NCBI RefSeq assembly: GCF_018977255.1
Contig: NW_024704743.1
Location: 16,556,001 to 16,620,000, forward strand
Direction of reading: 5' to 3'
Origin: Callorhinchus milii
Lineage: Eukaryota
DNA: 64,000 bases
The stretch's first letter is position 1; each line of letters opens with the position of its first letter. The position numbers were made by a program, and so were the translations under genes. This document shows positions 9,701 through 62,258 of this stretch, piece by piece. Under the pieces are notes generated by a model. It ran no database searches, was not told the DNA's origin, and saw nothing but the letters and a program-made list of their open reading frames with translations.

Positions 9701-12700
9701 TTAAGTTGTTAGTCGATGGATTTAATGAACTGTTTGCTACTGTCTCACACTGTTTGCTGCTACTGCTGACTAGAAGGCGAAGGTAAGATGGAATCTGTGC
9801 TTTAGAGCAGCTAGCACTTGTCATGATTAGCTTTTAGTCAGAGGCATGATTGTGGGAAGGACACCAAATCATGTCCTTTAGTCTTCCCAAAAACGCTTGG
9901 CCACAGACTTCTGTCGTAGATTGTTGACTATACAAATCTTAGATGAAACATATTTCAATGTCAGCTTGATAAATCTTATGAGTATTTAATAGCGCTACTG
10001 CAGACATTAATCTTGTTGTTTTAATTTGAAGTTGTGTGTTTAACTAAATAACCTCCATTATTATTGCTTTTTACTGAGAAGATAATTACATTCATATTAA
10101 TGGGGTCCATTATGTGTGTGTTTCCAAAGGGATTCTTTAATTATAGACACAATATTCTGACTCGTGGGATCTCCACTCTGCTTCAACAACTCTACTTTTG
10201 AAGCTGGGTTTCTGGGGTTGACATGATGTATATGTTGCACTTCCATTAGAAATCATCACATATTACACCCCAGTGTTTGGTTCAAAAGACAAGATTCACT
10301 TCCACCCCTCAGTTTGTGTGTTTCAAAATAGGAGATGTGTCACTTAAAAGATTGATGACATGACTGCCCTTCCTTGGTCTGTTCCATATTTTGTTCTTGT
10401 CACTGTCAATGGATGCAATATAATACAAAATTACATTTGTGAAGTGCCTTTCGCACCAGGAGGACATCCTAAGGTGCTGGGCAGTCAGGGATTTGGACTT
10501 TTTTGGACCCAAGCTGGGGGTCGGATTCAGGGAGGGTGGAGGGCAGGGAGGGTAGAAGGGTGACTGAAGTCTCAGTCGAAGAGGAGGGTTTTGAGACATG
10601 CCTTGAAGGAGGCAAGGGAGGGAACAAGGCGAAGGGAATGTGGAATGGAGTTCCATAGGATGGGAGCAGAAATGCTGAAGGTCTGTCCGCCGATGGCCGG
10701 CCGAGCGGGGAATGTAGGGCAGGCCAGAGCCTGCTGAGTAGAGGGAGCAGACTGGTTGATATGGGGTCAGCAGGTCGCAGAGGTAGGGCGGGCCAAGGCC
10801 ATGGCAGGCCGTGAAGGCAAGGACAAGGTTTTTGAATGCTATCCTCTGGTGGATGAGGAGCCAGTGGAGCCAGACGAGGGTGGGGGCGAAAACCACACAG
10901 TCAAAACCCCTTTATATACACATGACTACATGAATACCTCAACTCAATGTAAATACATCACCATGTAAAGTATATAATAATAATAATAATAATTCTTGCA
11001 TTTGATGTAGCATCTTATCAAGTCATTGAGATATCTCAAAGCGCTTCACAGAATATATTGTAAAGTGATTGAAGGTATTTTGTGGGCGATAGGCCTACGT
11101 GTAAGAACAGTTACTGGTGCTGGGTTGTCGTGTGTCCAGTAAGCTGCTACATCTGCGTGGATGGGACTTGTGATGCAACACTTAATGCCTTAATCTTTTG
11201 ACTACTTCATTCGATAATTCCATAAATCCCAGATGCTCCAGCCTGTGTGCTGTGTTGGCTTGTTGATCCTGGATCCCCTGCAAGGCTGATCACACTATCT
11301 GTGCATAATCCTCCCCTCATAACCACAGCTCCCATGTGACTGTACTGCCGTTCTCTTCTAGTGACTCGGGTCCACTTAGGATTTCCAAGACCCCGACCCC
11401 ACCAGAAGAGGCATCACCAATTGGTAGCCCCGAGGCCAGCCCTAACCACACGCTGGCGCCTGTAGCTGCATCACCAGCTCATAGTCCAGCTCGTCCCAAA
11501 TCCCCATCTCAGGTAAAGTAACCTTCTGTCTGTCAGCAATGCAGAGTCAACAGGATTTACTGTGACTGTCAGTTCCATACACATGTACAGCACAGGCAGC
11601 ATTTACATAGATTGCACAGCATATTTGAAGGAAGTGAAGAAAGAACATGCGGAACGTACTTTGCGCATGTTAAACTACCATCACCTATCTCAAACGTGCT
11701 GGTAACCATGGGCACAGTAACTTACTGAGTATTGCTTCTTACTGTGTCAGTTTCTACAAAGACTCCTTTTATAATTGTTTCCTTTGTTTCTCGTTTCTTT
11801 TCCTCGTTCTGCCCTGGATCCAGCTGAGAAAAGGACCTCCAGTTCCGCCACCTCCAAAACTCACCCCCACAAAGGAGCTGCACCAGGAGAACATTATCAA
11901 CTTTTTCGAGGACAATTTTGTTCCTGAGATCAGCGTAACCAGTCCATCACAGGTCAGCAAACGTCTGGTTACACCCTTTACTTCACTCTTATTGTCGGGT
12001 TCCTTCAACAGCTGATGTTCAGAATGAGGGCAGTCATTGTTTGCCAGCGGACAATTTCAATGATAGACAGTGTAGCCGTTTTCACCGATTTCAGTGTCAG
12101 CTTGGTTCAGTTGTTAGCATTATCGCTCTTAGTCAAAAGGTTGTGAGTTCAAGCCATCATGTCAGGACTTTAAACTCAGAGCCTAGGCTGACTCTCCAAT
12201 ACAATGCTGAGGAAATATCTTTTGGATGTGACTTTAAACCGAGGTCCTGTCTGCCTGATCAGGCAGATGTTAGCGATCCCATGACAGCGGGGGCATTGCT
12301 GTCTGCAAATTGGCCTGCATTTGCCTATAAATACACAGTCACTACTCTTTTGATGTGATCGGCTCTATACCAAATGCATGCATTATTAGTATTAATATAT
12401 GCTGTTTTCTAGTTTATTGCTGGATCTTTATTCATTATTCCTCCCTCAGCCTCTGATTTGAATTGAAGGCATTTTGATTTGTTTTTCATATAATTATTGT
12501 AAAATAGACTTTAGTCCTCCTTGGCTGGCTTTGCCAATTCTAATGATCACTATCTCTCTCGTACAATATACCATTTCCCATGCTGTAGAGTTAGGGCTTC
12601 CTTATGGTGTCTCAATGGAAGGTTGATGTTATGAGTTTTGACTGAAGAGATGAATTGCATTTATTAACACCCAATTATACCGGGTGTATTACCAGTTGTT

Positions 12701-19419: not shown

Positions 19420-22400
19420 CCTGGAGAAATGATCCGCCAATCGACTAACAACCGGTTTCCTACTTACTGCTAGGTAAACAGAGGCGTGTGGAGTAAGGAA
19501 ACTTGCCCAACGTTTCGCCCTGCCTGGGAATCGAATCCAGGTCTCTCACTTGCGAGGCAAATGCTCTAACCACTGCGCTACAGGACTCCACAGTATAAAA
19601 CAACAACAACTTGCATTTATATAGCGCCCTCCATTCAGGGCAGCATCACAGAGTGCTTAGGGTTTGATAAGATTAACATAAGAACTTCTCTACTGATTGG
19701 GGAGTCCAATTCCAGGGGGCACAAATATGACATAGTGACAAGGGAATCAAAAAAAGAATTTAGGAGGAACTACTTCATGTGGAGGGTAGTGAGATTGTGG
19801 AACCCGCTGCCTAAAGCAGTGGTTGAATCGGATAGTATAAATGCATTGAAGAGGAAGCTGGACCTCCACACGAGGGAGAGGAGAATAGAAGGATATGGGA
19901 GGGAGTAAGGAATGGGTGAAGACTCATGTAGAGTATAAACACTGACATGGACTGATTGGGCCGAGTGGCCTGTTTTCATGCTGTACATTCCTTGTAAATC
20001 TGTAAAGCTCCATGGTTTATCTGAATCAGTGTCCTGTGAAACAGCATTCGTACGTTGGCTGGCTTCAGGATCTGTAGCAAACATCCAAGGAATGGTTAGA
20101 AATTAACAAGTCAGGGGAAGAGTCATACTGCAGTCAGTGTTAACAAATGGGTTGAAAAATGTCTCGGTTCATAGCAGATTTGATAATCCAATTGATAAAT
20201 ATGGAATCTGTAAAGAAGAATTACATTTTATCATCCTGATTTTGTAGCAAGAATTTCTGTGTATAAGTAGGCAGCGGGATTCTGGAGAACTAAAGAGACA
20301 TACAGGTTTGGATATTGGAAAGGTAGAAGTGTTATGGAAGGTTTTAAGTGAAAATTAGATCTGAGAATGAGAAATATAAAATGGTGTAGGGAAAAGGCAG
20401 GAAAATGGGACTAAGGGATAGCTCTTTCAGAGAGTCAATTTAGACCCTATTATACCCTGATTCAGAAACAATGGACTTATGGATTGTCTTTATCATTTAG
20501 CAGCAGTTAGACAAATGTGAAGTAGGATATATATTAGTGTTATCTGTTTGAATACTGAAATTGATATACAAATCTGGTCACTGCATCATTCTTCATGACA
20601 GCCTCAGCAAAGATAAGATGCTCACAAAGTAAACAGTACCCAATAAGATTGCTTTGGATTCCAGAGGTTACGATCTAACACTTGTAACACACACCTTGGC
20701 AAAGCAAGCTCACTTTCTCTGTACCACAGGACTTCTCGTTCAACCCATAAGTTAACAGCTCCATAAAAGATTTTTATATCTTTATTTCCATCCCTTATGT
20801 GGGTATCTCAGAATGATAGAACTTACTGATGAGGCACTAGCACTGCAAATGGGGGTGGCTGATACCTGCGGTTGATCAGTTATATGGCACCCTTCACATA
20901 GGATAACATCTCAGCTTTACAAAGATGGAGATGGATGACAAGGAGGGCAGTGGGCAAGAGAGGAAGTGGGGTGACTATTGTGATTGAAGAACTGGGTTTT
21001 AAAAGAAAAATAAATTGTAAGAGGGAGAGGTATAGAACGTGCATTCCAGAGGTTAGAGACATAGATACTGAAGATTTGGCCACAGATGGTGGTGTGGATA
21101 GAGTGGGAGATGCTGGCGAGCCAGAGTTTCCCAAGTGGAGGGGTTAAGTAAAGGGGTGGCATGGGAGCAGATCAGAGAGTTAAGGAGGTGCTATGGCGTG
21201 AAGTGATTTACACATTAAAGTGAGGTCCTTGAAATTAATCCACTGAGTCAGGGAGACAGCTGTCTGGACATTAAAGATCCTATGGGGCTATTTGAAAAGA
21301 GAAGAAAGTTTCTCCCAGTGTCCTGGCCAACAATTCCCCAGAAAAAAATAGTTCTTCACTTCATGGCTCTTTGTGGGATTTTGCTGTGTGTAAATTTGGT
21401 GTCATGTTTTCCTACAAAATAGTCACTACACTTCAGTAAATCCTATGAAGCACTTTGAGATGTCCTCCTGAAGTGAAAGGTGCTGTGTCAAATACAAGGG
21501 ATATTATTAGTAATACTATTATACAATCTGTTTAATGGTTTCTCTTTTATCTTTCCTCTAGCCGGAGCAGCCTGCAGTTCAACCCATTGAGTCATTACTA
21601 GATCTGGACTTTGATCCTTTCAAACCAGATCATGTAACACCCATAGGAAGAAGTCAGTCACCCATCTCTCAGGTCTGTGATGCATTCATTTTATTTATTA
21701 ACTGGCTGTACCCATTGCAGCTCCGTTTGCAACCAAACGATTCAATATGGAATGTAGATTGACACACAGACAGATATTTCATACTCATTGGGATATTTTA
21801 TGCTGTTTTATATTTTATACTCCAATATTTTATACTCATCTGGGAGGACTCCTGTGGGAGAACTCCTTTTGGAGGACTGAGTGGGAGTATTCGGCACTTT
21901 AAATATTTAATTTTGTTGTTATTGCCGCAGCTTAGCTTCGTCTGTGTTCTCTATTTTTTCCTGCTGCTTGGCTATGTGTGTGCTCTGTGACGCAGGATGC
22001 CACAGCGTCAGAGTCAGCCGGCGTGGCCACCGGGTATAACTACAGCGTGTGCATACATACGTAGATGCATACATCGTGCTCTGTGACGCACGATGCTATA
22101 GGCCACGTTGACTCAGCGGCCACCAGGTATAACTGCAGTGAAAAATGCAATACTGAAAATAACTTATGAATGATAGATAGGAGATACCCAAAAACAAATA
22201 TGCCCATGTCACTCCCAGTTGCAAAACCTTTCTGATGAGGTATAAATCATGTCTCTACGTCAATCGGTTATTGAGATCCTTCTTGAACCGCAGACAGACA
22301 TTGTTGTTTCATTAGTATATATAGATAGAATAGATAGATTAATGAATGAATAATAGCTAACAAATATTTCATAACCTTACAGGGAGGCACTTCTAAATCA

Positions 22401-25400
22401 GCCCAGTGGTGTCTAATTTGCAACATTTTAATAAGAAATGTGTGATAATCTAATCCTAAAATATCATTTTATCTACCACATCAGATTTTAATTTTGAAAA
22501 CCTTTATTACATTCCTCCTTAATCTTCTTTGCTCCAGAAAAAAATGGTCCCAATTTTTCAAGTGTCACTTGAAGCCTGTAATTTCACTCACAAACTGACT
22601 TTGCTATTACCACAATAACTTCCAGTTTGAGAATATGGCAATCTCAACCTCTGTAAATTGCTCCATATGGTTTTCTCTATGTGTCTGTGTTTTAATGTTT
22701 CTGTTTCTCTTCCTTTTTATCGATTCTCAGACCCTGCCTTGGGATTTGTGGGAGGTAGGAATACTCTTATTTCTCATTTAGAATTCTGTTTATTTTCCAA
22801 TTTAATTTTGTGTTTTTTTTATGAAGTCAGAGATATTTAGCTTGTCAGAAGTGTTCTTCAGAAGAGTTTGTGATGTACTAATTTTGAATGTGACATGCCA
22901 TTATACTGCATTTATATTGGAGGTGTCAACTTGGCTGTCAGAGAAATCCGATTTTTCTAATACAGTAATACACTGAAGGACCCTTCAGACTTGTTGGAGA
23001 GCATTGTGGATTCTAAGCAGTCTGTGATAAATAGGGCCATTATGCAATATAGAGGATCATTTACTGCAGTTTCATTGGGTAGGCGGGGGTGTACATTAAT
23101 GAATTATATGAAGAACATATTAAAAAGTCAAACCAATCAACATGGGCGCAAGCCAGCACAGTAACAAAGTGCTGATCAGCGAGTATTATTAATGTGAAGT
23201 CTGCAGAAACTTTCATTCCTGCCACATTCCTGCTGATATCTAAGCCGGGCGAGCCATTACACCAATATAATGTCAGGTAAGTGACCTGCCTGCTCGCCTT
23301 ATCAGTGAGACTTGAAAAGATAGACCTGTCACTGGGCAACTGGATTCTTCCCGCTCTGATTCCATTAACACTAGAAGCCAATAAGTCCAGTTAGGGTGTT
23401 AGTTATTCAGTTATTCTCTAGACCAGGGAGGTCCAACCTTTTGGATTTCCTATTCGAGAAAGGTCCGCAGACCGCATCTAGCATGGACCAACTGGAGTCC
23501 TGCGGGCCGCATCCGGCCCGAGATCATTTCCAACAATCCAGCTTCCACTCGCTCCCTCCCTGGTGAACGTCCTCTCAGGGCAACGGCAGGAGCCGGCGGT
23601 TGGGAGGATGCAGCGCGGAGAATGGAAATAATACCGTCCGTTACTGCAATCTGTGAGGAAGCCAGAACGTCTCTTTCCAACTGTGTCCTTAGCAACCACC
23701 GGCTCCTGAGGGGGGAGAGAGGGGGGGAGAGAGGTTTGGGGGGGGAGGTGGAGCTTGGAGGTAAGGAGAAGGGTGGAGATGGGGTCGAGGGAGCAGGTGG
23801 TGGGCTTCATTTTTGAAATGATGGAGGTGAGGGAAGAGGAGGAGACAGGTGCGTAGGGAGGAAAGGGTAGGGACCGGGTGTGAAAGGAGGTGGGGAGAGG
23901 GTAGCGGTAGACGGGGAAGAGGTAGCTGAGTGAATCCCCTCGATTTTGGACTTGAGGAAGCCCAACATCTACTCCCAAGCCCCATGGCAGAACTTTGAGC
24001 TCACACTCCAGTGCATTGCTCGAGGAGCACTGCATTGTCGGAGGTGTTGTCCTTTGGATCAGGTGTGAACCTGAAGCCCCATCTGCCTATCCAAGTAAAT
24101 ATGAAAGATTCTATGACACTGTTAGAGGAGAGAAGGGAGAGCTTCCCAGATTGTTGGCCACTAATCCACCAGATAAAATTGGTCATTAACTCTATGGTTG
24201 TTTGTGGGACATTGCTGTGTGAAAATTGGCTGCCTTGTTTGCCTATAAAATAAACATTCACTGCAGTTTACAGTAATTGCCTATGAATTTAGTACCACAT
24301 TAACATTTAAACCTCCACATGCATAGTTTAAAATCGTGTGACTCTTTCACATCCACAAGGGTGTATATTTGACATCCAATTCCTGGTGTGACAATATCAT
24401 TGGCTTCTGTCCTCTTTCCTTGCTATATTTTTTATGATATATTCAAATTCTGAACAATTACGTGTTGGCTGTGAAACAAAAGATATAAAGTGAAAAAACT
24501 ACCTTGCTAAAAACAGAGGGCCCAAAGCCATGCCATACCAATGGGACTGATCCCATCGTGCATATGAAAACAGCGTGGATTTCATGTCGTCACACAAACC
24601 TCAGTGTGCAGCCTTAACCAAAAGCATCTTCCATCAGGAATTATACTGTCACTATAGCACCATGCTATGCTAGCCCTTCTTTCTGTGTGTTTGTATGTGT
24701 GTGACTCTAGCTATTTTACTTTTATCGCTCTTTCTATCTTAGTTTCATTGTGTATCCCTATCGCTTTTTCTCTCTGCTTCTCTGTAACTATTTCAGATTG
24801 CTGAGCAAACTCAATAAATTCCCTGTCAGTAGCACATACATTTGTAAAAATATCCCACCGCTAGTTAAAAGGCCCATTTGCTGAGTATCTGCACAAGCAC
24901 AATTTACGATTCTCTAGGCAAAACCTCAGCACAATGCTATATCTCAATTACATTGGATTTGAACGGATACACAGACATTTAGCTTGTGGATATGGAGCAT
25001 TCATCTGTATTTGTCCAAGGCTAGAGGTTAAATTGCAGGACTGTGAATGCATTTCAAAGCACAGGGAGTTCATGCAAAATTCAATTTCAATTTATTTTCA
25101 AATTTGTTGCAAATTCACTTTAACATCTTGCTGATGGAACACACTCACAGCTCTCTGGAACAGTGTTGGCCTTGGAAATGCTGCCTATACCACATTGCAA
25201 TCACAATCTGCAGGCTTCCAGCCAGCTGAATGGAAAATGGAAAAACAACACTGATAATAGCTTCCTTGTGAATTTTCGCAAGAAAGATATATTAGGAGTG
25301 TTTCAAAATCGCGTTCCAATAGGGGATATTTTATGTTCTGTTCATTATTGAAGGTAATGGACAGTTTTATACACTGTTGAATGCATAGTATATATCGGTT

Positions 25401-28400
25401 GCTAACTATTCAGAGTGCTAATGACTGCATTTTCTTTCACATTCAATTCTCTCTGTCTAAAGGCAAACACTGAACTGGTGCAACCTGTAAGTATATTGCC
25501 CTTGTTTCTTTTACTTTAATATGGTCCTAAATCTAAGGCCTCTTTCCTATGGGATAGAATGATGTATTCCTAGTGGTATAATCTTTCACTTGTACATCCA
25601 TATTTATATTGTATAATTTTATGTTTCTTTTTTGGGGGGCAATTTTCCTGACCCTGATCCTGTCATCCCAAGTGTATCTTCCAGGTGGGTTACAGGATAG
25701 GGATCAGGAGCAGGATGCTTGGCTGATTACCTTCTCCCCTCTACCAATGACTCCAAGGCTAGTTATGGTACTCCAAATTACTTTCCTGGCTGAGATCAGC
25801 ACACATCTGGAAACAAATCTGTAACTTTGCAATCTCTGTGGCTTAATGTTACACTTGTTAGTGCCATTACCACTGGGTCATTGGAGGAAGCTGCTTATAC
25901 GTCCATTTTTATGAGATTATTATTTAGTTCATTTAGATAAAGTTTACGTATGTTTGCTGTTTCTGATTTATTTAGTTCTTCGTTTAATTCATTTTCTACA
26001 GCTAGGATTTCCATAATCTATTTATAACATTAAGACATGTGGGATTTCTACCACGCATTTATTTCCTATAATTTACCTTGAGCTTCTATTTTATTTACCC
26101 TTGGGAAAAACTTGTGTTGATTTATTTTGCTTTTTTTCATCTCTGCTTCTGCTATCTTTTATATCTGTCTTCACTCATTTTCTATCTAAAGCCCGACTCT
26201 TCAAAAAGTCTCTCTCTGTGTAACCTGGCCATGGAGGACAGCGCAGATACTGGCACGGCAGGGGACATTACTAACCCAAACTCTGAAGTAGCTGCCAGCC
26301 AGAACTATACAACGCAGTGGGGGTTAACGGACACTGCCGCACACAGTAACAGCGAGGAAACCACTCTAGATGGTTTTTGCGATGGAGCCCAGCCGTGTGC
26401 TCAGGAACAACTGTCTGCAGGGAGCTGTACTGACCCTTCAGCTGATAGCTTTTCGAAACCTGCAGATGAGGCTGAGGAGGAGGCACAGGGCTCAGTCAAT
26501 GCAGAGAGTTGGCAGGAGAAGCCATTAGACAAACAGGTAGACACCGAAGAAGTTGAGTGCAGGAATCTGCAGATTGAACTGTGTGCAGAACAAGAGCACA
26601 ATCCTGTACTCTCTATTGATGAGAAGGTTTTGGTGGTCCCTAATGAACATGAGGATGAAGCTGTAGAATTAGTTGAAAGTGTTACTGAGTTAGGGCAGAT
26701 AGGAAATGAATGCAATTTCAATCCCCTTGATTCAATTTACCAATCAGTGCTTGAGGTAGTGGACAACACAGGTAAGGGTTGTGAAGCAGAATCCCAGCTA
26801 GTTGAGTGCTCTGGGGGAAATGGTGCAGAAATGGAGGACATGGTCCTTAGCGAGAGCCATCAGGACAGTGGAAGCTATCACAATGATGATACTGCTGATA
26901 GTCGTGAAAAGGATAGACTCCCGTTTCAAAGTAATGACATTTTTGATGGTCAGGAGGAGGTTCTGCAGGAGGCGGAGGAAATCCCTGTTATCCATGGCGA
27001 TGAGGAAAGTCCTGATCACCAAAAGAATGAGGACATTCCTGATTATTTTGGAAATGAGGAACTTCCTGGTAGACAAGAGAAAGAGGAGATTGCTGTCCGG
27101 TCTGAATGTGACAGAAGCCTTGTCAGTTCAGATGCTGAAGCTGATGTTATCCCTCAACACACTGAGGTATACATAGCACATCAGCCTCAGCAAGAGGAAG
27201 AGAAGGAGGAGGAGGAGAGGTGCTTTGAGCCAGTGAACATAGTCAACACAAACAACACTGAAACAGAGAGTAATGTTAACACAAATGATGAAAATAGCCA
27301 ACCCAATGAACCACAATCTGACAAACCCATTGTGGACCGATTACCCACGTTTCACAGAGAAAACTGTGACAGTATTAGATTTGCCCCTCAAAGCGTGGAG
27401 TCAGACCCCTGGAGTGGAGAAAAGATTGAGATATGGCCAGACAACTGGGAGCCTACAGTTAGCAATGATGATTGGGGATTCTCCAACCTACCTGATGGCC
27501 AGACAAATGGACTTGATTGTTGGCCACCATTGCAGGAAGGACAAGGAGAGAGCAGTGACCCTAAGGGAGGTGCAAAAGGAGATTTTTGGCAAGGTTTGGA
27601 GGAGAATGTTGGCTGTTGGCCTCCACAAGATTCCGATGAATTTGGTATTCCATGGGAAGGGACTGTGCTGAGCAAGTTTGGGCAGAATCAGGAAGTACAA
27701 TTAGACCTGCAGTTACGTGGGGAGAATGAAAGCATTAGTGAGACAGAGCAAATCAAAGAGATCAATAGTCCCCAAAGTCCCTATCCAATCGAGAACATAA
27801 GCAACTCTAGCAACGAGAGTGCAACCAGCCCTAAAGATAATGAAACAAACATCTCGGATCTGTCAGAAGATGAAATTGCTAACCGGAGATACGGACTGTT
27901 ATACCAGGAACTAGATGCTGAAAGAGAAGAGGTACCTCATAAAGTGCTTAGTGTAGAAAAAAGTTCTTAGGTATGACTAAATATTATCGTAAAATAACAG
28001 CTCTCGATTCAATCTTTTCCTTCAGCTGTCTGTCTTGTTTTGTTATTGCTCCAAAAGGATATGTTATAATACAATAGCAGAACGTAATGAATGTAGTCTG
28101 TATTCCGTCTGGAATCCTACAGTGTGTGATTGTAACTTGATATTTTACTTCTTTCCACTATTTCCAGATGACTAATGCTGCCTTTAATGGATTCACACAG
28201 GTAAGATATCTTTAACTTGTAATTCAGTCTCCTTAGGTACAGAAGCTACTCCACGCTGCCAGCATAAATTTGATATACTATTTGGATGCTTCACAATTCT
28301 TCTTCTGAATCTGATCAGTCAAATTGGAAGGCACACAATAAAGCACAGAACCCTGTGAAAAATGCTTTCCTCTTCCCCTATACCTGACCATTGTTTTCTA

Positions 28401-31400
28401 ATTGCCATGCTATCAGAGATAGATTTTTTTTTGATGAACTTCATTATAATACCAGTCAAGATATGGCGCAGGTGGACTATGTACCAGTATACTTGAAGTA
28501 TAGTAATGTCTGGCTTCTGCATTCACCCACAAAACACACAGTTGCTGCATTTTGCAGTGCATCCAATGCATCCTTTGGCACATCTTTCTGATATAAAAGA
28601 GGCACCATACCAAATGTAAAGATGATTATTATTATTATTATTGGCTGATCAGCTTCCTGCACATCCTACTGTGTAACGATGTCCATTGAAAATGCATATG
28701 AAAACGGTTTTGCCAGCATGGTAGTGGTCATCTTTTTCTGTCATCTTTTTCCTGCATGGCAGTGATGTCCATGGGAAATAATTATGGTGTATCCTGTTGC
28801 GGGGACTGTTTCTTATATATATATATATATACATATATAATATATATGGAGCCAAACCAAAGCATTATAATAGTATCCTTCCGTATTTCATGGTAACCTC
28901 TTAACAACTTGTGGGTGGAATCAGTCAAGGTGACAGGAAACTGGCTTGTTCCATGATGCTTCATGTGGTGCTCTCAATCTCAACAGAGCCACCTGAGGCA
29001 GCATCTTTTGGGATTGACAGCCAGCAAACAAGGAAGATATGATAAGGTGCTATATCAAATGCAAGGATTAATGCAAGGATAGAATTGTTGGCACTGTTGT
29101 AGAAATTGCTTTGTTCTCATCAGTTACAGCTTTTTGTTCTTTGAACAAATACAGATTTTGTTTTTGTTATGGGAATCACCACTCAGTTTTGCATCCAGCC
29201 AATGCCAGGACCAAGGAGCTTATTTTACTTCATGGGACTGAAAAACCACTCCTCAGGAAAGCGGGAGTGTTATTGCTGCCTTATTGTCAGAAAAACAGTC
29301 ACTTGCAGGCTAAAGTGCATTTCCTGCAGAAATCCCCTTTATATCACTCCAACTCATGAGACTTTGACTCAGAAGGAATGTTGAGTTGGAGCCGAGGTTT
29401 TACAAGTCATCTTGGCCTACAAGGATTTTCCTGCAGAAAACACTTTATGTCTTTAAGATGCTTTTTCCAAAGGTAAAGCATCATTAGTATTAATGCTTAC
29501 CTGAGAGGAGGTTTCCAACTCCATGGTGCCTGTTAACAATGGAGACTCTAAATTATTTTACTTTCTCAGTCTGTCAATGCTTGCCAAGTGTGTTCTTGCA
29601 ATGCAGCAGTTAAGCCGTTGAAATATTATGAAGTATTACAACATTAATTGCAGGCAGCCCTGAGAGGAGAGGGAGAATTAATAGCTTTTGCAGGAAGCAT
29701 CTGACAAGGTGCATCTCACTTGAGCACGAGTGATGGGTGTTTCATTAGCATTAATATTATGGCATAGTTAAGAGCAAGAGATAATAACATGAGTTTGCTG
29801 CACATCAGCAGATCTTATAGTCATGAGTTTTGAAATGGGGACAGAAAACTTGGAGTAGTTCCAAACAAAAAGTTATCTGTATTTGCACAGCTCTACATAG
29901 TCAGTCTGTCCTTCATCTTTTTATTGCCCGCAATGGAAACAGCCTTTGTGATGGGTTGTTTGCTCACTTTAGAGTTCTTTAATGAGAATAAACAATGCAC
30001 ATGGCAGAAGGATGCCTTTGTCATACTTTGAAAGCACGTTAGAGAGAATTACATCCAAGAGAATTAAAAATGAGAATCCCTAAAAGCAAATTGGGGAAAA
30101 ATTGAAAGGAGAGGCGATAAAAATGAGAGGAGATTAAAAAAAACAAATTTAGAAAGGCGTGTGTGTGGTATGTACTTTTCAAACAGTCTTAAAAAATAAG
30201 TGTTTTTAAAAGAAAGTGTGGTACTTTGCACTTCAGATACTTTGAGTCAGTAAAGCAGTCAAGCATCAAAATTCATGGAAATCACCAATTAATGGTATAA
30301 GAATTGGATGCTTGAATATTAATAAAGGCTTTGATGCTCCAGGCGTGAATGATGTTAACGTGCTGGAAACCCATACATCTCAACTTTCAGAAGGCACTTA
30401 GCTCATGGAAAGCTTGTGACTAAAGTGAATTCTCTTGAGATAAAGAATGAAACAGTAAATGGGATAATAAATCAGCTAAATAAATGGAAACAGAGAGTGA
30501 TTGAAAGGCCTTGCACTAGAAATGGCCCCACTTGGGTAGTTCTACAACTCTATTTACTGTTCTTTGGTCAACTAGACCAAAGTCTATTATGTACGGAAAC
30601 TGCAAATTGTCCTTGCAGTCCTTAAAAGTCTCCTTTTACAGCTACGAGGAACTGTCAGAAGTAAATTCTCAGTTCTCCCTCTCAGTGAATTGCATTTCTC
30701 TCCATCTCCTGGCCAGCAATCTCCCAGATAAAATTGGTCATTCATTTCATGACTGTTGGTGGGATAGTGCTGTTTGCAAATTGCCTGCCATGTTCATGTA
30801 CAAAAATATAGTCACTATTACAGTAAATCCTGCAAAACACTATGAGACTTATCTCATTGTGTCAATCACTCAGTGCAAAGTAATCACATTTGCAGCTGAC
30901 ACCAAGTTTGTAGGGACCATGAACACAGCATCTTACAAAGAGAGTGCTCAATGAGGTATACATTTGGGCTGATCACTGGCAACCTAAGTTTAATGCAAGT
31001 AAATGAAAGGTACTACATAAATGAAGTAAAATAGCAGTTATGTGTACTCTGTGGATGGGATAGAACTTGACAACGGGAAAGTTGAACTTGACCTGGCATG
31101 TTAGTTTATTCATTGCTCACCATGTCCAAACAGAATGAGGCAGCAAAACACAAAGCAAACAGGATGCTGGGATTTATTTCCAGACCTTTTGATTTTCATC
31201 ACGATAGTCTGCCGGTGACCATTTGGGTTTCAGAGTGTATCAACCAAATTGTGGAGTTCTCAGCATTGTGTTATAAAAATGAAATGATTCCCTTAATATG
31301 CGGCAGCACAACGTTAGACCACTGACCGTTAGCATTGGTACAATCTAAGTGGTACAATCTTAAAGGGATTGAAGGAACAGTGAGACCTTCATGAACAATG

Positions 31401-34400
31401 CCAGAGTCCTTGACAGTGTGATATTGCAATTTCAGTGAGATGTTGACCACCTCCGATGCTCAGCTGCTAAACTGCACAGATGAGGACACAAACGCAAATG
31501 TTATCCGAGTTTCTATTAGGTGTGGGCCAACAGCGCTCACTGTACATAAATCCAGCACAAATGGGCATTAAATTGGCAACAAAAACAGAAGTTGCTGGGA
31601 ACCCTCAGCAAGTCAGGCAGCATTTATGGAGAAACAAAAGTGAGTCAACATTTCAGGTCCACAAATCTTCATCAGAACCGGATTCATTAAATTGGCAATC
31701 TCACATGCAGGTCGTAAGGATGAGTGGGGTGGGAAGTGGAAATATTTACCCTCGCACAATGATGGAAAGGGGAGAGAGGAGGCAGGTGGGGGAAATATAC
31801 TTCTGAGGACAGGACTAAGTTTCATTATTGGCTGCAGCAAACTTGACTTTGGTGCTATAGCTTATCATATTAATCCTGTATTTTAACACTGATATGGATG
31901 AGAACAATGGAAACATGTTCCAGAACTGGAATCGCATCAACTTCATAAGCAGTTCAACAACGCCCATTGAGACCGATTGACAATGACAGTGCTATCCAGC
32001 TCTTTAAGGGCTGAAATTCCTTTCATTCAAATAATAAGGTTGGCAGAACAGACTTGGTCGTCAGTTCCACAATCTCACTACCCTCTGAGTGAAGTAATTC
32101 CTCCTAGATCTCCTTTTACATCCCCTAGTCGCTATCGTATACTTATGTCCCCTGGTTACAGACTCCCCAACCAGTAGGAACAGCTTATTTATGCTAAACC
32201 TACCAAACCGTGAATGGCCTTGTAAGTGAGGATGAGGATCTTGAATTCGATCCTCTGGGGGATGGGGAGCCAGTGGAGGCGAGCGAGGGTGGGAGTGATG
32301 TGGTCCCGAAGCCTGGTGCGGGACAGTACACAAGCTGCAGAGTTCTGAATGACCTGCAGCTTGTGGAGGGAGGTGCTGGGAAGGCCGATGAGGAGAGAGT
32401 TCCCGTAGAAAGGTTGATGGATAGAATTTTAGCAATTGCAAGACTGTTTTTTTTTGCTGATGTGCAAACAGAACAGGATGGGTGCCAGACTCCACTGAGA
32501 TAAAGATCTTATTTAAACCTCAGGGAACTCCCAGCTTCCTATGTGAGCAGCACCAGCCTGATCTCACTAGCAACTGAAGACCTTGAATAGCCTCTAGCAA
32601 GCATTAATCAGCTGTATCTTTGCAGTAAAATTACAATGACTGTCACCATGGGCTGGGCTTGAGCAAACTAATATTACAGATATAAACCTATTACCTTGTC
32701 TGCAAGTTGACCTGGTATTTAAAAGAGAATGTAGGAGGAACTAGTTCTGTTCAACTTTCCATTCTTTGGAATACCTTTATTAGCACTGTGTCTATAGAAC
32801 TGAACAGACCTTATAGACTGCAAATAGGTGTATATAGACTGTGGCAGGGTGGGTATTTCTGGAGATCAAATGGAACGAAGGGCCCTGTTCAACCAAATCA
32901 GTCTTATGATCTTATATTCTTGTGATCTTGTCTTTGAGCCAACCAGTTTCAGATGTTTTCAGCTCATGTATTGTGGCACTGAATAAAATGACCGATATTA
33001 ACTGTAATAACACCGTAAAACGAATATCTCCTCCAAACTATGTCTGACATCAAAACCCAGGAATGTTTTGACAAGGATCCAAATGGGCTTTTCCCCTGGT
33101 AACCAGAAATATTGTAGATTTAAGTGTTGTGGAACTTGAACTCACATAGTCTAAGCTGACACTCTAATGCAGAGGTTAAACCAAGGTCTCATCTACTTAT
33201 TCAGGATGTTAAAGATCCCATGGCACTACTTGAAAAGAGAAGGGAGTTTCTCCTAGTGTCCTGGTCCTGGTCCTGTCCTGGTCATCAATCCCCCAAATAG
33301 AATTGGTCATTCCTTTCTTGGCTGTTTTTGGGTCATTATTGTGCACAATTGGGCTGTCGCGTTTGCTTACGAAATACAATCACTCCACTTTAATAATAAT
33401 AATAATAATCCTTGTATTTTGATATAGCGCTTTTCACCTCGGGAGGACGTCCCAAAGCGCTTCACAGAACACACTGTAAAGTGAATTGACTGTATATTTG
33501 TGGGCGAACGCGGCAGCCAATTGTGCACAGCAATGTCCCACAAACAGTCGTAGATTGAAAATGACCAATTTATTATTGTTTTTTGTTTTTGAAGGGATTA
33601 TTATTAGGCTCTGTGTGGAGTAAGGAAACTTGCCCAAGCTTTCGTCCTGCCTGGAATTGAACTCAGGTCTCTCGCTCGCAAAGCGAGTGCTCTAACCACT
33701 GAGCTACAGGACTCCACTTTAGAGTAAAACCTGTGAAGCACTTTGACACGTCCTCCTGATGTTAAAGGTGCTATAGCATGTGTAAGGATTATAATTATTA
33801 TAAGTACATCACAAAGACCTGAACAGACTCCTCTCTGAAAATAGATTACATCGGAGTAGGCTCCTCGCTAATTGGCGTGATGCACTCCTTATTCCCTTTT
33901 TAAAGAATCTCATTAGGAATCGTCCTGTTTTACACTGTTGACTTGTGAAATTTATAAATATTTTATGGGAGTGGCTTATAGTTATAGTGTGACTGCCCGA
34001 GAAACAATGTCTGATCTCTGCATCTCTGACAAGTTGTGTATTAAAGATTTTTTCTTCTTAGTCCTTCTCACTGACATGGGAGTCAGCTTGGGAAGTTCTG
34101 ACTGTCTAGCGCCTTGAGGCATCCTCCTGACGTGAAAGGCACGCTATCAATGTCATTTTGCTTTTGTTGTTGTTGAACCATCCTCACAATGTGAAAGGCG
34201 CTATATGACTCCAAAGCGCAGCTTGTTCAACTGAATATTAATGTGCTGCCTGACAGATGGGTTCTCAAAATCCTCCAGCTATGTACACAATGTGATTAAT
34301 TTTACTGGTGATTGCATGGATTTCTTTGACAGAATTATGGCTGTAGTGTCTCAGGTCAAATTGGAGGGCTGTTTTCTCCTGCATTTCTATCTCATTCTGT

Positions 34401-37400
34401 CTCTGATTTGTCCTTTCTCTCATTAAAGCTGGATGCTGCCACCACTGAGGTAACCCCCGAGGTGTCTAACCAGAGTGTGTTTGATACAGTGGTGAGTCAC
34501 CTTTCCTCTTCCTGCATCGCTTTTGTCTGCCTCTAATCCCACAATCCCATTGTAACACAGCTGCCTTCTCAGACTGGAAACTGCTCAGGAGCTTCAGTGC
34601 TGAGCTCTAACATAGATCAGAATATTATTTTTAATGTAGAACATCCTGTAAAAATTATATTTCTATCCTAATTCATTGCGTGCCCTACATACAGGTCATT
34701 TTACCAATATCAATGTTCTGATGTGCAACGTTATGTTATACAAAGAATTTTCTGAGTGTATAATGTTAAGAATAAGTGATGGACTAATAGACTTAATTTG
34801 ACAGAGAATGAAGAGTGTGAGCCATGTGCTACATCTCGCCTTATGCTGTATTTCTGGTAACTATAATTTATTCCTCAGTTGCATTAGATACAAGTCAGTT
34901 GTTTCCGCTTGGACACCATTACTTTAGCCACTGACCTGAAGGGAGATCACATAAAAATGTTGTGTCTTGCTGGTGTTTCTCTATTGCAAGCGTGTCAGTT
35001 CCCAGTGTACTTCAATGGCCCTATGCACACATTGTAAGTGGGGTAGTTGGGTGAGATGTTATAACGGGGTTACCCTGTATTAAGTGCTATGAAGAGGATT
35101 GATGTATAAAGACAAACCATGCAAAACTATATGATTCTCCGAGCTCCCTCTTTTTTCCATTGTGCTGGTTCACTCCACATAGCTATGTATCTATAAGCAA
35201 GACAGTCAAAAGTGAATGAGATGGGAATTGAGTACAGAGGATCCCTGCTGTAGACTGTAGTGTAGACTGGGAGCAGAACTAATATGAGGGCAATTACTCT
35301 GCACATCTTCAGAGTGGATCGTTGTGAAACATGCTATTTGCTCATATCCTCCCGGGTATCCTTTTCCTTTCTATAAATTCCATCCCAAACTAGACGAGGT
35401 GTAGCACAATAATGAACTATGGGAATTAGAGGTTTCATTGTTTCAAGCTCATATGCTTCCTTGTAGAGGATTGATGTCTTCCTTTAATGGAGTTTCCACC
35501 AGAACTTAGGAAATGTTACAGGTTTGTAATAATGAGGTTCCACTGCACTTATTTTGTGTCCCTGTGTTGGGTCCCTATTATTGGTTTAAAAGGGAAAAAA
35601 ATTATAGAATTTTGCAGCACAGAAGGAGGCTCTTCGAACCTGTGCCAGCTCTTTGAAAGAGTTATCCAACTAGTCCCACTCCCCCGCTCTTTTCCCATAG
35701 CCTTGCAAATTTTTCCTTTTAAATTAAATTTTAACTTAAATACATTAATAAATACCAGACGGGTTTCTGTACAATAATGAACATTGACAGAGATCCTGAG
35801 ATTTTACAGGGAAAGATCAGCATTCTATAACTACCCCCTCAACTCGTCCCTTATGTCTGCTCTTGATAGATAAGATACCGATTTGGTCACTAAGTAACAG
35901 CGAAAAACTGGTACTGAATGTATTCTTTAATGAAAGGCTTCTCTCTGCTGGCCTCATAGAACTGATCTTCACTCAATATCTGCTGTCAAAAAATAACCTG
36001 CAGACAATCTGGGTTCAGTGTGTTCTAATTCAGCAAACATTGGCCTGCTTCACATCCCTCGCCCGCTCTGCTCCACTATAGGTGGGCAAGCATTCAGCCA
36101 CTCTGCCCCCACTCTCTGAGTCCTGTAGCTCAGTGGTTAGAGCACTCGCTTTGCAAGTGAGAGACCTGAGTTCAATTCCAGGCAGAGGGCGAAACCTTGG
36201 GCAAGTTTCCTTACTCCACACGCCTAATAATAATCCCTCCAAAAAAACAAAACAATAATAAATTGGTCATTTTCAATCCATATGACTGTTTGTGGGACAT
36301 TGCTGTGCGCAATTGGCTGCCGCGTTCGCCCACAAATATACAGTCAATTCACTTTACAGTGTGTTCTGTGAAGCGCTTTGGGACGTCCTCCCGACGTGAA
36401 AAGCGTTATATCAAATGCAAGGATTATTATTATTATATTATTAATATCTCCACCTTACCCCCTTCCTCTTTCAAAACCTGCCTTCAGACCGATCTGTGTG
36501 TTTGGTCACCTATCCCCTTGCTTCCTCCACCACCATCAACAGCTCAAGCTCCCAATCAGTGTGTGAAGCATTTTGAGATACCCTCTTGATGTGAAAGCCG
36601 CTATATAAATTGCTCTGCTGTTGTTGAACATAAATTTAGTGGAGACAAAATAAACTTGCTGTAATAGAGTGAATGAGTGAACTGGGGGCAGTATCACTAC
36701 TATTCCCCCACCACAACCACCCACATTGGCTTCAACTTTTATTGTCGCTAACTAGACTACCATACCATGCATAAAGTGCTAACATGATTACCTTCCCTCC
36801 CACTCTCAAAAGATCAACCCAGAGCCCACTCCTGCAGAAGAACCCAAGGCCCCCGAGCCACATCCAGAGAAGCCGCAGGATGTTCTTCCTGCTGAGCCCA
36901 GTGTACCAGCGGAGGAAGTGGTGGTTGTGGTGAGTCCTGTTATACTATGCACACTCATTCACCCTTCACAGCTCACTAGCATCATTGAGGGGTCGCTTTT
37001 CTGGGGGTAATAATTCCTTCAAACAAATATAATAAGAAGAATTTGGTCACTCAATCAATGACTGTTTGTGGGACACTACGGTGTGCAATTAGCTGCCGTG
37101 TTTCGGCCACAAAATATACAGTCAATTCACTTTACAGTGTATTCTGTGAAGTGCTTTGAGACATCTCAAAGACTTGATAAGGCGCTATATCAAATGCGAA
37201 GATTATTATTGTTATAATTACCTACCATCTATACACTTCATCCCTCGACTGTTAGCAGCTTATAGTTCCAGTCAATCTTAGAGACCAGTTTTCTGTTCTT
37301 TCTATTCTATTTTTTTACACTCATTTGAGTTTCTGACACATGTGGAAAGCCATCACCATTCTCAAGAGTATCTAAACCAAACTGAGAATTCCATGCATCC

Positions 37401-40400
37401 CACCTACATATGGAAATTCCAGAAATATTGGAATTAGATTTCTCCACATTTCCTCCCCTAGCCCCCACTGTGGTGCTGACTGTTAAGATTTTATTTGTCC
37501 TTGTAACTATATATTCACCATCTTTGTTCAGACTTTCTTCAAATAATAATATACTAGCATTTGATGTAGCGCATTATCACGTTGTTGAGACGTCTCAAAG
37601 AGCTTCACAGAATATACTGTAAAGTGAATTGACTGTATATTTTCTGGGCGAAACGCAGCAGCCAATTGCATACAGCAATGTCCCACAAACAATTGTGGAT
37701 TGAGTGACCAGATTATTATTTCTTTTTTTTTGAACAACCGGAAAAAAATGATGGCGGGCTTGGAAGAGGGGAGGGGAATGTGGGAGGAGAGGGAGATCAG
37801 GAAGTGGTCTGAGATGGCCTTGTCCATGATAGACAGGTCGGAAATGCCAAGGCCATGTGATGGCGAAGTAGAGGGAGTGGCCACGGTTATGGGCCGGCGA
37901 GTTGATGTGGAGGATGAGGTTTAAGGAGGAGAGGAGGGCAGTGAAATCCGAAGAGGTGGTGCAAGGGCAATTTAGGTGGAGGTTGAAATCATCCATTATG
38001 AGCAGGTGTTCAGTGCAGAGGCACAGGGATGAGAGGAGATATCGGTGAGGATGTAGCAGGAGGTTTGGGGGGGCGGTAAATTAGGAGGATTTTGAGGGAG
38101 AGAGAGGAGAGATGGTAGAGGGTGAGGTGCTCAAAAGAGGAGAAACAGCCAGAGGAATAAGGGGATAGACTAAGGGAAGCTTGGAAGATGAGGGCCACCC
38201 TGTCACCATGTTGGTTGGGGCGGGTGGTGTGGTAAAAAGTGTAGCCAGGATGGGAGGCTTCAACGAGGGGGATGGGGTTACTGGGGGAGAGCCAGGTTTC
38301 TGTTCGATCAAGAATATCAATGAGCTCATCCAGGATGAGGTCATGGATAGTCAGGGCTTTGTTGGAGAGAGCGGACATTTTGGAGGGAAATGTGGCTAGG
38401 TATACTGGTAAGCGGCGGTGATGGGGAGAGTGGTATAGAGAGGATTTGGGATTGTGGGATAGAATTGACCATGGAGTTTGAGGAGTAGGGAGAGTAGGAG
38501 AGGATATGGATGAGGGAGAGGGAAGGGGTGTTTGCCTTTCAGAGGCGGTTGCTGCAAAAAGAGTGAGCTATGCGACAGTTGGGGTGGCTGCTCTGGGACA
38601 ATCAATGCCGGGAGCCAGGATGGGCCTGGCGGAGGATACACAGGGTGGAGCACAGGGAGGTAATGGTGGGATCCAGGAGAGAGAGAAGGAGAGGAGGGCG
38701 GTGGGAGAGAAGGACAACAACAACAACAACAAGATTGCATTTATAGAGCGCCTTTCATGTCAGGAGGACGTCCCAAGGCGCTGGACAGTTGTGTCGGGAC
38801 CCCAGCAGAGGGGAAATGGTCAGGGTGAGGGGAGGGAAGGGAGGGAGCGAGGAGAGGGTAGACAGTCGAAAGGGGAGGTGAAGACACGGTTGAAGAGAAA
38901 GGTCTTGAGAACGGCCTTGAAGGAGGAAAGGGAGGAGGCGGCGAAGGCACTGGGAGATAGAGTTCCAGAACCTCGGGGCTGAGAGGCTGAAGGCCCGGCC
39001 ACCGATGGTAGGGCGGTTGGGGCGGGGGATGTGGAGCAGACCGGAGCCAGAGGAACGGAGGGTACGGGCAGGTAGGTAGGGGGATAGTAGGTCGGAGAGG
39101 TAGGAGGGTGCAAGGCCGTGAATGGCCTTGTAGGTGAGGATGAGGATCTTGAATTCGATCCTCTGGGGGATGGGGAGCCAGTGGAGGCGAGCGAGGGTGG
39201 GAGTGATGTGGTCCCGAAGCCTGGTGCGGGACAGTACACGAGCTGCAGAGTTCTGAATGACCTGCAGCTTGTGGAGGGAGGTGCCGGGAAGGCCGGCGAG
39301 GAGAGAGTTCCTGTAGTCCAGCCTTGAGGTGATAAAGGCGTGGACCAGAGTTTCAGCAGCGTGAGGGGTGAGGTAGTGCCGTAGTCACTGGTGCCGTAGT
39401 GCCGTACTCCGGCGATGTTCCGGAGGTGATGGAAGGCAGTGCCAGCTGTGGCGCGGATGTGGGGAAGAAAGGACAGCTCAGGGTCGAACAGAACACCGAG
39501 GTTCCTGACTGGCTTTGAGAGGTGGAGAGTGCAGCCTTGGATGCTGATGCTGTCAGCGCCTGAGGTGCGGAGGCGCTGACGTGAGCCAATCAGGAGGGCC
39601 TCAGTTTTGTGCACGTTGAGCTGAAGAAAGTTGTCTCTCGTCCAGGACTCGATGTCGGACAGGCAGCTGTCAGGACATCGGTGGTCGTGGAGTTGAGGGT
39701 AGAGAAGGAAAGGTAGAGTTGGGTGTCATCCGCATACATGTGGAAGTTAACCCCATGTCTGTGGATGATGTCACCAAGGGGGAGCATATAGAGGGTGAAG
39801 AGGAGGGGACCGAGGACAGAGTCCTGAGGGACACCGCACGAGACAGTGCGGGGGCCGGAGGAAAAGCCGTTTGCAGAGACAAAATGAAGACAGTGGGAGA
39901 GGTAGGACCTAAACAGAGTGGGATTAGTGGAGTGTGGGCCTGGGAGCAGGAACATTTTCAGGGAGAATGGCTCAGGTCGGGGCGGTAGTCAAACCGCCCA
40001 AAGAGCGACTGGGAGCAAGCGATCAGCGGTGAAGCATCAGCCTGTGGGCTATGGGGGAAAGTGCGGGGGTGGAGAGGGGGGATGGTAGTCATGGCTTAGG
40101 TGCCAGAGATTGGGAAGGAAGGGAGGACAGGGTAGCAGAGGGCTACTAGAATATACACTATACTTACCCTACCCTGGCGGATTTGAAAAAGGCGCCAGGA
40201 ATTGGATGTGTAGAATCATTCAAGTAAATCTACATCCCAAGACCCCGGCTGTAATATGTGTGCCCCACCGTGTTGTTTTTAATAATCTTTCATATTAAAT
40301 TACATAATGCCATATATATTCTTTTGCATTGCATTTTGCACAAATAATGTACATAAGGGGGATGATCAAATTAAATAATCCTCTATTTTCCTCCCTATAA

Positions 40401-57044: not shown

Positions 57045-58301
57045 TCATGAAGATGCGTCGTGCTTTGGTAAAGGAGCTGCAGTTGGTTCCTTGCTCTCTG
57101 TTAAAGCTCTTGGTTGATGGATAAACACACTGAATTTAACTCCTTGGTTACCTGCGGCTCTAACAAACCCACTGTTTGCAGTCATGGTTATTGCCTTTAA
57201 AGTGTCTCCAGTGCCAAAGATAGTAATAGAACGAGTGTTGATTTTTGCACTAGCTTCCAGCCTCAAGGCATATTCAGAAGGTTGGTCTGGTACAACTGAG
57301 ATTCTCTGGAGCAGTTTCTGTGCTCGGTCCCTCTCCCCCTGTCCACCCAATGTATCTAAAATGGCTTGAAAATCCTTCACTGCTGACTGACACGCAAATA
57401 GTTCCTTACCCTTCATAAAGGCCTGTAGTTTGGGTAACACACTCTCCTCCCTTTCCTGTGCAGCCTGTTCTGTCAACACTTTCTCTTTAAAAATGTAGTC
57501 GCAGCCCCCGTGACTGACAGCCGAAACAAAGGTGATTAAGGTTGTGATATCTAGGTTGACTCTATTACAGAAATCCACCTTAACGTCAGTCGGGAAAGCA
57601 ACGCTGGCGACGATTGTTGAGCGATCGACTTTAGTCACACACAGAGGCTCCTCTAGATCTTCCTCAGAGTCACTCAAATTCTCACCAGCTTCCTCCACCA
57701 GATCCATCATCGAATTCACCGCGACAATATCCCCTCGCACAGAGAGCCCCATTTCCTTCAGTCTGTCTGCCATGGGGCTCGAAACACTGTTGTAAAACGC
57801 AAACACAATGTGCGGATTGCTGTACTGCACCAGCTGCTGTTTGCTGGCCTCCAGGTAGTCTTCCGCTTGCTCTATGATGCTCTTGTCTCCGTACTGCCCT
57901 CTGCCCACCCAGATGCTGTGCAGCGCCTCGGCTTTTCGGCCAATTGCTTTGACCCACGTGTGACCGCTGTTGGCCACCACATCCACCACCAGGCATTGCT
58001 TCTCCCCGGCACGGTCCCGATAGTTGAAGACATGCAGCAAACTGACCACATCGCCCAGGCTCTCGGCAGACTCGATCACCGCCTTCAGGTGGGTGAGGTT
58101 CGTGCTCTGCAGGTGCGATTCCTTCACAGACACCTTACCCAGTTCCACTTTCTGCAGAAACTTGAGCTCTGCCTTCAGTTTGCTGCAGAGTTTGGGACCT
58201 CCCTGCACGCCGTCCTTCCGGGAACAGGCAAGTGCCTCCGCCCTCTCAAGCAGCTGCCGGGCTTCAGCCATTCTCTCCATAAGGATTCGGTGCACCGACA
58301 T
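57045..58301 (-). CDS. C7orf25: UPF0415 protein C7orf25 homologue, 418 aa, single coding exon
   Basis: [14 protein letters not shown]...[17 protein letters not shown]...[15 protein letters not shown]...[10 protein letters not shown]...[13 protein letters not shown] recognisable as C7orf25. ATG in ctcaccATG context; splice acceptor ttcttccag 15 nt upstream (exon starts 58316). Confidence 0.94.
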
Positions 58302-58359
58302 GGTGAGATCATCACCCTGGAAGAAGCTATGGGTTGGAAGGAAAGAGACAGCGAAAGTC

Positions 58360-58585
58360 ATCATTCTCACTCACTCTATCTGGTGCCTGTCTCACTCTCT
58401 CTCTGGTACGTATATCGCTCTCTTTCTCTCTGGGGCCTTTCTCACTCTGCATCTCTCTCACTCTTTCTCTGGTGCCCATTTCACTCTCTTTCTCTTGTGC
58501 CTGTGTCTCACCAACCTGAACCTCTGGTGCCTATTACACTCTGTCTCTTTCTCTGGAGCCTGTCCCACCCTCTCTGGCTCTGGGG

Positions 58586-58621
<36 letters not shown>

Positions 58622-59928: not shown

Positions 59929-59959
<31 letters not shown>

Positions 59960-62051: not shown

Positions 62052-62090
<39 letters not shown>

Positions 62091-62157
62091 GCTCTCCCTC
62101 TCTCTCTCTCTCGGGCTCTCCCTCTCTCTCTCTCGGCCTCTCTCTCTCTCTCTCTGG
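58360..62157. repeat. Compound microsatellite: (CT)n tracts separated by GGGGCC(TGT) units, about 3.8 kb
   Basis: Directly visible; explains the spurious long LS/RE ORFs. Confidence 0.97.
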
Positions 62158-62187
62158 NNNNNNNNNNNNNNNNNNNNNNNNNNNNNN
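62158..62187. other. Assembly gap (30 N)
   Basis: Run of n. Confidence 0.99.
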
Positions 62188-62258
62188 GAGTATCATCCGT
62201 ATTAAGGAGCATCAACGTTAACTGAATATAGTGACGCAGCTATCGTAAGAGTACTAAG

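Follow-up and report, generated by a model that had tools for sequence, protein, structure and literature searches.

The window analysed here is the whole stretch of 64,000 nt from Callorhinchus milii (contig NW_024704743.1). Shark amphiphysins place the exons for the BAR domain, the clathrin/AP-2 region and the SH3 domain of AMPH across positions 623-51194, in line with the gene assignment of the original prediction. The AMPH features considered in the following are listed by position, with splice sites indicated by a slash.

9774-9782, forward strand: candidate 9-nt microexon with a strong donor and four TAG within 55 nt; at the DNA level the counterpart of the mammalian retina microexon
11821-11952, forward strand: exon with a canonical AP-2 FxDxF motif (FEDNF)
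21562-21672, forward strand: exon with a clathrin box and DPF (LLDLDFDPF)
22731-22754, forward strand: 24-nt exon with a clathrin W-box (PWDLW)
25463-25486, forward strand: 24-nt exon (ANTELVQP) upstream of the large exon, delimited by joints of sequencing run X1
26083-26191, forward strand: polypyrimidine tract and acceptor of the large exon, AG-free over 107 nt (34-97 nt in six neighbouring exons)
26192-27931, forward strand: large cassette exon of 580 codons, phase 0-0, net charge -106, predicted to be disordered
26192-26230, forward strand: conserved exon start, 65% identical between shark and tetrapods; its DNA is 91% identical to the bird-like contig L001 over 53 nt
26534-26542, forward strand: candidate nested in-frame donor CAG/GTAGAC (26536/26537), giving a short form of 115 aa without the Trp cluster and the end helix
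27401-27661, forward strand: Trp-motif cluster (aa 404-490), with W[DE]P[TSIM] as its best-kept unit
27854-27931, forward strand: near-invariant end block with a predicted helix (aa 559-579), matched by human retina peptides
27932-27970, forward strand: weak donor followed by UAG at +18, +23 and +37 (Musashi-type element)
28168-28200, forward strand: 33-nt exon downstream of the large exon, delimited by X1 joints

The AMPH exon at 46271-46780 (+), which precedes the SH3 domain, contains a tandem EEVKPAG repeat with a 21-nt unit in about eight copies. Tail to tail with AMPH, positions 57045-58370 (-) carry a gene whose one exon encodes DUF5614 and DUF1308 domains and which we take to be C7orf25-like. 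A long GA/CT-rich simple repeat, a 30-base N gap and a C/A-rich repeat follow at approximately 58400-63200, and these repeats give rise to many spurious long ORFs. Degenerate LINE-like endonuclease/reverse-transcriptase pieces, as judged by the translations, and 3' fragments of them are found at 38000-40000 (-) and at many further places in the introns.

The large exon is flanked by exons of 24 nt and 33 nt and lies downstream of the clathrin/AP-2 region. Its 1740 nt are stop-free in the coding frame, with 17-77 stops in each of the other five frames, and the probability of such an open frame at the exon's composition is approximately 6e-16. The acceptor reads ...ctaaag/CCC, and the donor (GAG/gtacct) is weak. 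Translation confirmed the coordinates, length and phase originally assigned to the exon, and the GT..AG joints of run X1 confirmed its two small neighbours. The exon matches no Pfam family above the cut-off. Within-window repeats cover 26% of the gene, and its longest interval without any (24288-28521, 4.2 kb) includes the exon together with its flanking introns, so that the claimed absence of insertions in a repeat-rich gene was borne out. The exon is also acidic as described, but acidity is not confined to its first two thirds: D+E account for 24.5% of aa 1-387 and for 21.8% of aa 388-580. The strongest donor inside the exon (26771) was rejected as it is out of frame.

Run X1 was taken to be RNA by guess, as it carries GT..AG joints. 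The joints 21672-22731, 22754-25463, 25486-28168, 28200-34429 and 34491-36813 were observed. The joint 25486-28168, with a contig depth of 383, skips the large exon in frame and thereby supports the view that the exon is an alternative cassette missing from the canonical AMPH form. No inclusion joint is present among the 15 joints listed of approximately 1,970 in X1, the contigs of which show presence and not absence; unspliced X1 contigs span both ends of the exon. In runs X3 and X8, coverage of the exon is almost zero. Among the listed exon variants from other individuals, six are non-synonymous and two synonymous, with no stop and no indel.

Homologues of the exon were found in sharks, skate, bichir, gar, sturgeon, teleosts, amphibians, sauropsids, platypus and rodents, in agreement with the ancient origin and the presence in other vertebrates that had been proposed for it. 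With aa 395-580 as query, 35 long proteins were obtained out of 300 candidates, every one of which has a BAR domain; they represent sharks, bichir, frog, squamates, turtle, birds and platypus. The last 48 aa yielded 30 matches against 1.84 billion representatives, 29 of which resemble AMPH inserts; these matches include named teleosts, gar, sturgeon, axolotl and gopher, with skate and rat as cluster members. A nematode protein among the 30 was rejected for want of a scoring stretch. BIN1, lamprey and invertebrate sequences were not recognised among the last-48-aa matches, a weak negative since the exon is often unannotated. In a tree of 12 inserts, with the frog row left out, the C. milii insert is sister to four sharks and a skate with starred support, a position that points to a holocephalan. 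Complete inserts of the homologues are approximately 460-610 aa long. An intact bird-like copy of 592 codons, accompanied by both small flanking exons, is located at 869-2644 (+) of L001, a metagenome contig that represents vertebrate DNA inside a metagenome assembly. In the Polypterus model P0006, a VPS41-like, an amphiphysin and a serpin-like part are joined, probably as a gene-prediction artefact of neighbouring genes.

The retinal insert of mammalian amphiphysin has been known for two decades. A retina-specific amphiphysin I (amphiphysin Ir) was reportedly described in mammals by Terada in 2002 and Hosoya in 2004, and the large exon presumably corresponds to their 'insert B' (see also the review PMC11536687). 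A 2024 human retina atlas reports that no domain was found in the insert. Five novel mass-spectrometry peptides from human retina map to the AMPH exon elongation (PMC11450717), two of which match the end of the C. milii exon; homology of the insert extends further to rat (P0082) and gopher (P0055). If the supplement coordinates of PMC11450717 are read as introns, the human exon would comprise 1740 nt with short donors at 522 and 828 nt, arithmetic that is backed by its reproducing the 102 and 406 aa of that paper. The approximate size given for the mammalian insert in the original prediction is borne out by this value. The identical length in human and C. milii is probably due to chance because the rat insert has 484 aa and sauropsid inserts have 554-609 aa. 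Among the human isoforms listed in PMC11450717, full-length reads number 230 for the full exon, 35 and 171 for short forms and 182 for skipping; a further 21 read through to an intronic poly(A), 23 retain the intron and 221 fall into three uninformative isoforms.

In mouse, the Amph exon (chr13:19118424-19118912/19119875) has two donors, giving 489 and 1452 nt (PMC6952364), and its long form has the length of the rat insert (484 aa). The mouse exon is likewise flanked by exons of 24 nt and 33 nt, according to supplement coordinates of PMC4991804 and PMC9509328. Its inclusion amounts to 92.8% in rods and 0.55% in brain, with 8-12% in SST and PV interneurons and olfactory neurons and 0% in Atoh1+ cochlear hair cells, which are possibly immature (PMC6952364). 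The proposed 'ribbon-synapse isoform' is too broad, and 'retinal' fits better because of the hair cell value. Amphiphysin itself is present in photoreceptor terminals (PMC3934443, PMC3046965). The mammalian exon has already been published, including its use in the retina and its translation, and many non-mammalian models already carry the exon; no publication on its deep conservation or on the end helix was found in the literature searched, which covered few subscription journals and part of the supplements.

The C. milii exon is almost certainly the chondrichthyan orthologue of the large retina-specific insert of amphiphysin I. The two share the gene, the slot, the end sequence and a downstream UAG cluster, together with a nested short donor and the 9-nt microexon, both candidates in C. 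milii. They differ in the short form, which would measure 115 aa in C. milii, compared with 163 aa in mouse and 174 aa in human, and in the Trp cluster, which is intact with DPW and W[DE]PT in C. milii but eroded in rat and gopher.

Conservation is distributed unevenly along the exon. Between catshark and 15 tetrapods, identity is 92% for the core of the end block, compared with 78% for the BAR domain and 63% for the SH3 domain, and drops within the exon to 65% at the start, 21% in the Trp cluster and 12% in the middle. The original prediction listed the end motif but centred on the Trp cluster; the end motif is the constant part. Because the exon end served as the query for retrieving homologues, the apparent conservation of the block is inflated (it is present in all of 125 isoforms, all fetched through it); the human peptides are independent of this. 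The residues S, E, D, E, N, G and Y of the block are invariant in 36/36 homologues, and the changes at other positions are mostly conservative (I/V, Y/F, R/K, D/E, L/I, L/M). Over the last 45 codons, C. milii and L001 differ by 13 synonymous changes that keep the residue. Synonymous sites of the block are over-conserved in this one pair (16/22 identical codons vs 8.4 expected, P=0.0006), and 9/13 are identical at the exon start, so that constraint at the RNA level (splicing) may contribute to the conservation of the block.

With a 20-row alignment, AlphaFold2 assigned a pLDDT below 50 to 466/580 residues; the only confident helix spans aa 559-579, at approximately 95. The preceding L-S-E-D-E reads as a helix capping box. 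The end block resembles the beta2-appendage ligands of ARH, beta-arrestin and epsin in being a single, here predicted, helix in a disordered endocytic protein, and the spacing Y-x-x-[LIV]-x-x-x-[RK] occurs in 30/36 homologues and in C. milii. The strict consensus [DE]nX1-2FXX[FL]XXXR, in contrast, is found in 0/37 inserts: the helix has Tyr for Phe, no preceding acidic run and often Lys for Arg, and the invariant N, R, Y/F, G, L and Y of the block mostly precede the pattern. A sequence search of the PDB with the last 48 aa gave no match at E<=10, Foldseek with the low-confidence insert model gave none, and ESM Atlas gave no usable match for aa 530-580.

All motifs named in the original prediction are present, namely SDPWS (aa 404), IWPDNWE (414), DDWGF (426), CWPP (443 and 475), DFWQG (464), IPWEG (486) and the end motif (556). 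Eight of the ten Trp of the exon lie within aa 407-488, and the occurrence of seven within 70 aa has P=0.0012 (200,000 random placements). Motifs were surveyed in 36 homologues from named records and in C. milii, with some fish and amphibian inserts partial. The AP-1/GGA gamma-ear ligand, for which the consensus is aromatic-G-[PDE]-hydrophobic, is absent from all 37 inserts. By the definitions of PMC5694535, where DP[FW] is an AP-2 alpha-appendage ligand, the C. milii insert contains a single DP[FW] (aa 405, P=0.11) and 0 copies each of FxDxF, Wxx[FW]x[DE], the clathrin box and the W-box (PWxxW). Across clades, DP[FW] is patchy: it is found in 4/5 elasmobranchs, 1/3 basal ray-finned fishes, 4/4 teleosts (39 copies) and 9/17 sauropsids, but in 0/4 amphibians, 0/1 monotreme (platypus) and 0/2 named therians, while Wxx[FW]x[DE] occurs in 3/5 elasmobranchs. 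Of the 'extra adaptor-binding sites' originally proposed, one DPW thus fits a consensus but is not above chance and has no counterpart in therians and amphibians. The teleost inserts (P0057, P0062, P0064, P0065) carry 7-15 DP[FW] each, above all 3000 shuffles. Amphiphysin's CLAP region and DP[FW] arrays of the Eps15/epsin type likewise place aromatic motifs in an acidic disordered chain, but true DPF arrays exist in the teleost orthologues and not in C. milii with its one DPW. Of the 30 homologues that are neither teleost nor therian, 29 keep the unit W[DE]P[TSIM]. It corresponds to no consensus that was tested, and the same is true of the longer conserved unit W[DE]P[TS]...WGF when compared with AP-2 appendage ligands. 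The four teleost inserts also share a conserved segment, PG(I/L)xFTNExGxE(I/V), which is not seen in C. milii.

The presence of TAG motifs behind the donor, as originally noted, was confirmed and fits the Musashi control known for the mouse exon. Windows of 50 nt that start with GT contain at least three TAG in 70/3197 cases (2.2%). In L001, UAGs are found at +18, +23, +29 and +43, the first two placed identically in C. milii. In mouse, knockout of Msi1/Msi2 lowers inclusion of the Amph short-donor event from 0.43-0.51 to 0.06-0.17 and that of the 9-nt microexon from 0.25-0.31 to approximately 0; several conserved photoreceptor exons are dispensable in mice (PMC9509328). Downstream UAG clusters of photoreceptor exons are defined with a spacing of 10-15 nt in PMC4991804, where inclusion of the mouse Amph exon in the photoreceptor-less Aipl1 retina falls from 0.62-0.69 to 0.49-0.58 (on-target-plus-junction count); the residual value shows that other retinal cells contribute. 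The C. milii exon thus shares with Musashi-activated photoreceptor exons of the Ttc8 exon 2A type a weak donor followed by three UAGs, and its mouse orthologue is in the Musashi-activated list. Unlike these, it is very long rather than micro, and its UAGs are spaced by 5 and 14 nt.

The candidate nested donor at 26536 was noticed post hoc, and its position is the basis for equating it with the mouse 489-nt donor. It shares 10 identical nt with an internal site of L001, and the pattern W-x8-/V[DE][TIA] is present in 14/23 sequences examined, with a related A-D-T form in bichir; the donor follows W-x8 in cartilaginous fishes, sauropsids and rodents. The microexon candidate would give GAP-RRRS-DSGP, and the same 3-aa insert is found in the models of catshark (RSWS), birds and a snake (RKRC) and rat (RARC); human AMPH has a microexon listed as retina-specific (PMC9303857). 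Read-through past donor 27931 adds 12 aa before an in-frame stop, which is the third UAG (+37), and many homologue models carry short read-through tails. A CaaX or PDZ reading of such tails (CSLV, CSVV) was rejected as others end in CSID, CSVD, CSLD and CSVE; their shared xS[VLI][VDE] pattern results from conserved TAG-N-TAG DNA. Two shark models have a 7-aa extension, compatible with another weak donor located at +21 (after 27952).

These observations can be combined into a model in which splicing control, arm length and a terminal helix act together. In photoreceptors, Musashi would bind the UAGs past the weak donor and switch the cassette on, as shown in mouse. The exon would place approximately 580 residues, acidic and disordered, after the clathrin/AP-2 region and ahead of the SH3 domain; the bulk of these may act through size and charge by roughly doubling the disordered arm (454 aa without and 1005 aa with the insert in the catshark model). 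When bulky disordered domains are attached to N-BAR, they drive fission irrespective of sequence, as seen with an unrelated fused domain (PMC6363457). By extension from this work on ordinary amphiphysin, a longer arm should favour fission; it would increase crowding on the BAR scaffold and extend the reach of the dynamin-binding SH3 domain. The end helix would fold on binding and dock a retinal partner, for which an endocytic coat component, AP-2 first, is our guess because of the context, the tandem YxxPhi, the relaxed beta2-type pattern and the teleost DPF arrays. The Trp and DPF motifs may add weak, lineage-variable coat avidity, and use of the nested donor may allow the cell to make a short form that lacks both the helix and the Trp cluster. 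We assign a probability of roughly 0.6 to this model being the best explanation as a whole, and regard the chances of its full mechanism being correct as even. A more novel proposal, put at slightly below even odds, sees in the end block a binding helix of photoreceptor terminals that has so far not been described, serves to dock amphiphysin on a retinal partner and has been kept since the jawed-vertebrate ancestor, together with an equally old three-way switch. The putative partner would be a non-canonical AP-2 site or a scaffold of the ribbon or periactive zone, e.g. RIBEYE/CtBP2, to which we take the DLS core of the block as a lead. The switch between skipping, the nested short donor and the full exon would dose helix and crowding arm, and teleosts and therians would later have remodelled the Trp region in opposite directions.

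The exon might instead be a pure spacer that acts by length and charge only, its ends being kept for the splicing signals that they carry next to a regulated acceptor and a weak donor. The middle is barely conserved, yet insert length stays within the range given above, the listed variants are near neutral, and synonymous sites are over-conserved at both ends. The conservative nature of the block's changes, its seven invariant residues, the synonymous changes that leave the residue intact and the confident predicted helix are at odds with this reading, which we consider unlikely. Still less probable is the view of the original prediction that additional AP-2/clathrin sites in the Trp cluster are the exon's main job. 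Trp clustering is real, and DP[FW] is frequent in elasmobranchs, sauropsids and above all teleosts; against this, C. milii has its one DPW without any other strict AP-2, clathrin or gamma-ear motif in the insert, and DP[FW] is lacking in amphibians, platypus and therians, the last being the lineage with proven retinal expression.

The main role of the exon might also be to produce an SH3-less amphiphysin, a curvature protein uncoupled from dynamin, through donor read-through to the stop and an intronic poly(A). Such a product exists in human as TRANSCRIPT6138 (PMC11450717), whose 415 aa (406 + 9) have a novel C-terminus and are not flagged as NMD, and the C. milii stop 12 codons past the donor and the tails of many homologue models are compatible with it. 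However, its 21 full-length reads make it minor in human retina next to the 230 with the spliced full exon, A[AT]TAAA is absent from the 236-nt downstream intron and first occurs at 28337, and the tail pattern is explained by the TAG-N-TAG DNA, many tails being single-exon predictions; this as the main role is very improbable. A relic exon whose splicing-in was lost in C. milii would account for the skip joint being the only one seen in X1, but it is scarcely credible given the intact 580-codon frame and splice sites, the listed variants free of stops and indels, the conserved UAGs, the 4.2-kb repeat-free island and the fact that mouse brain skips the exon too.

While the exon itself is no discovery, its C. 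milii copy shows that the retinal AMPH exon is as old as jawed vertebrates. It dates the AMPH retinal splice programme, comprising the large exon, the UAG element and, as candidates, the nested donor and the microexon, to a time before cartilaginous and bony fishes diverged. Comparison across jawed vertebrates narrows 580 residues to one predicted helix of 20 residues and argues against the Trp motifs as a starting point in mammals. The finding bears on how fast vesicle retrieval is sustained at photoreceptor terminals.
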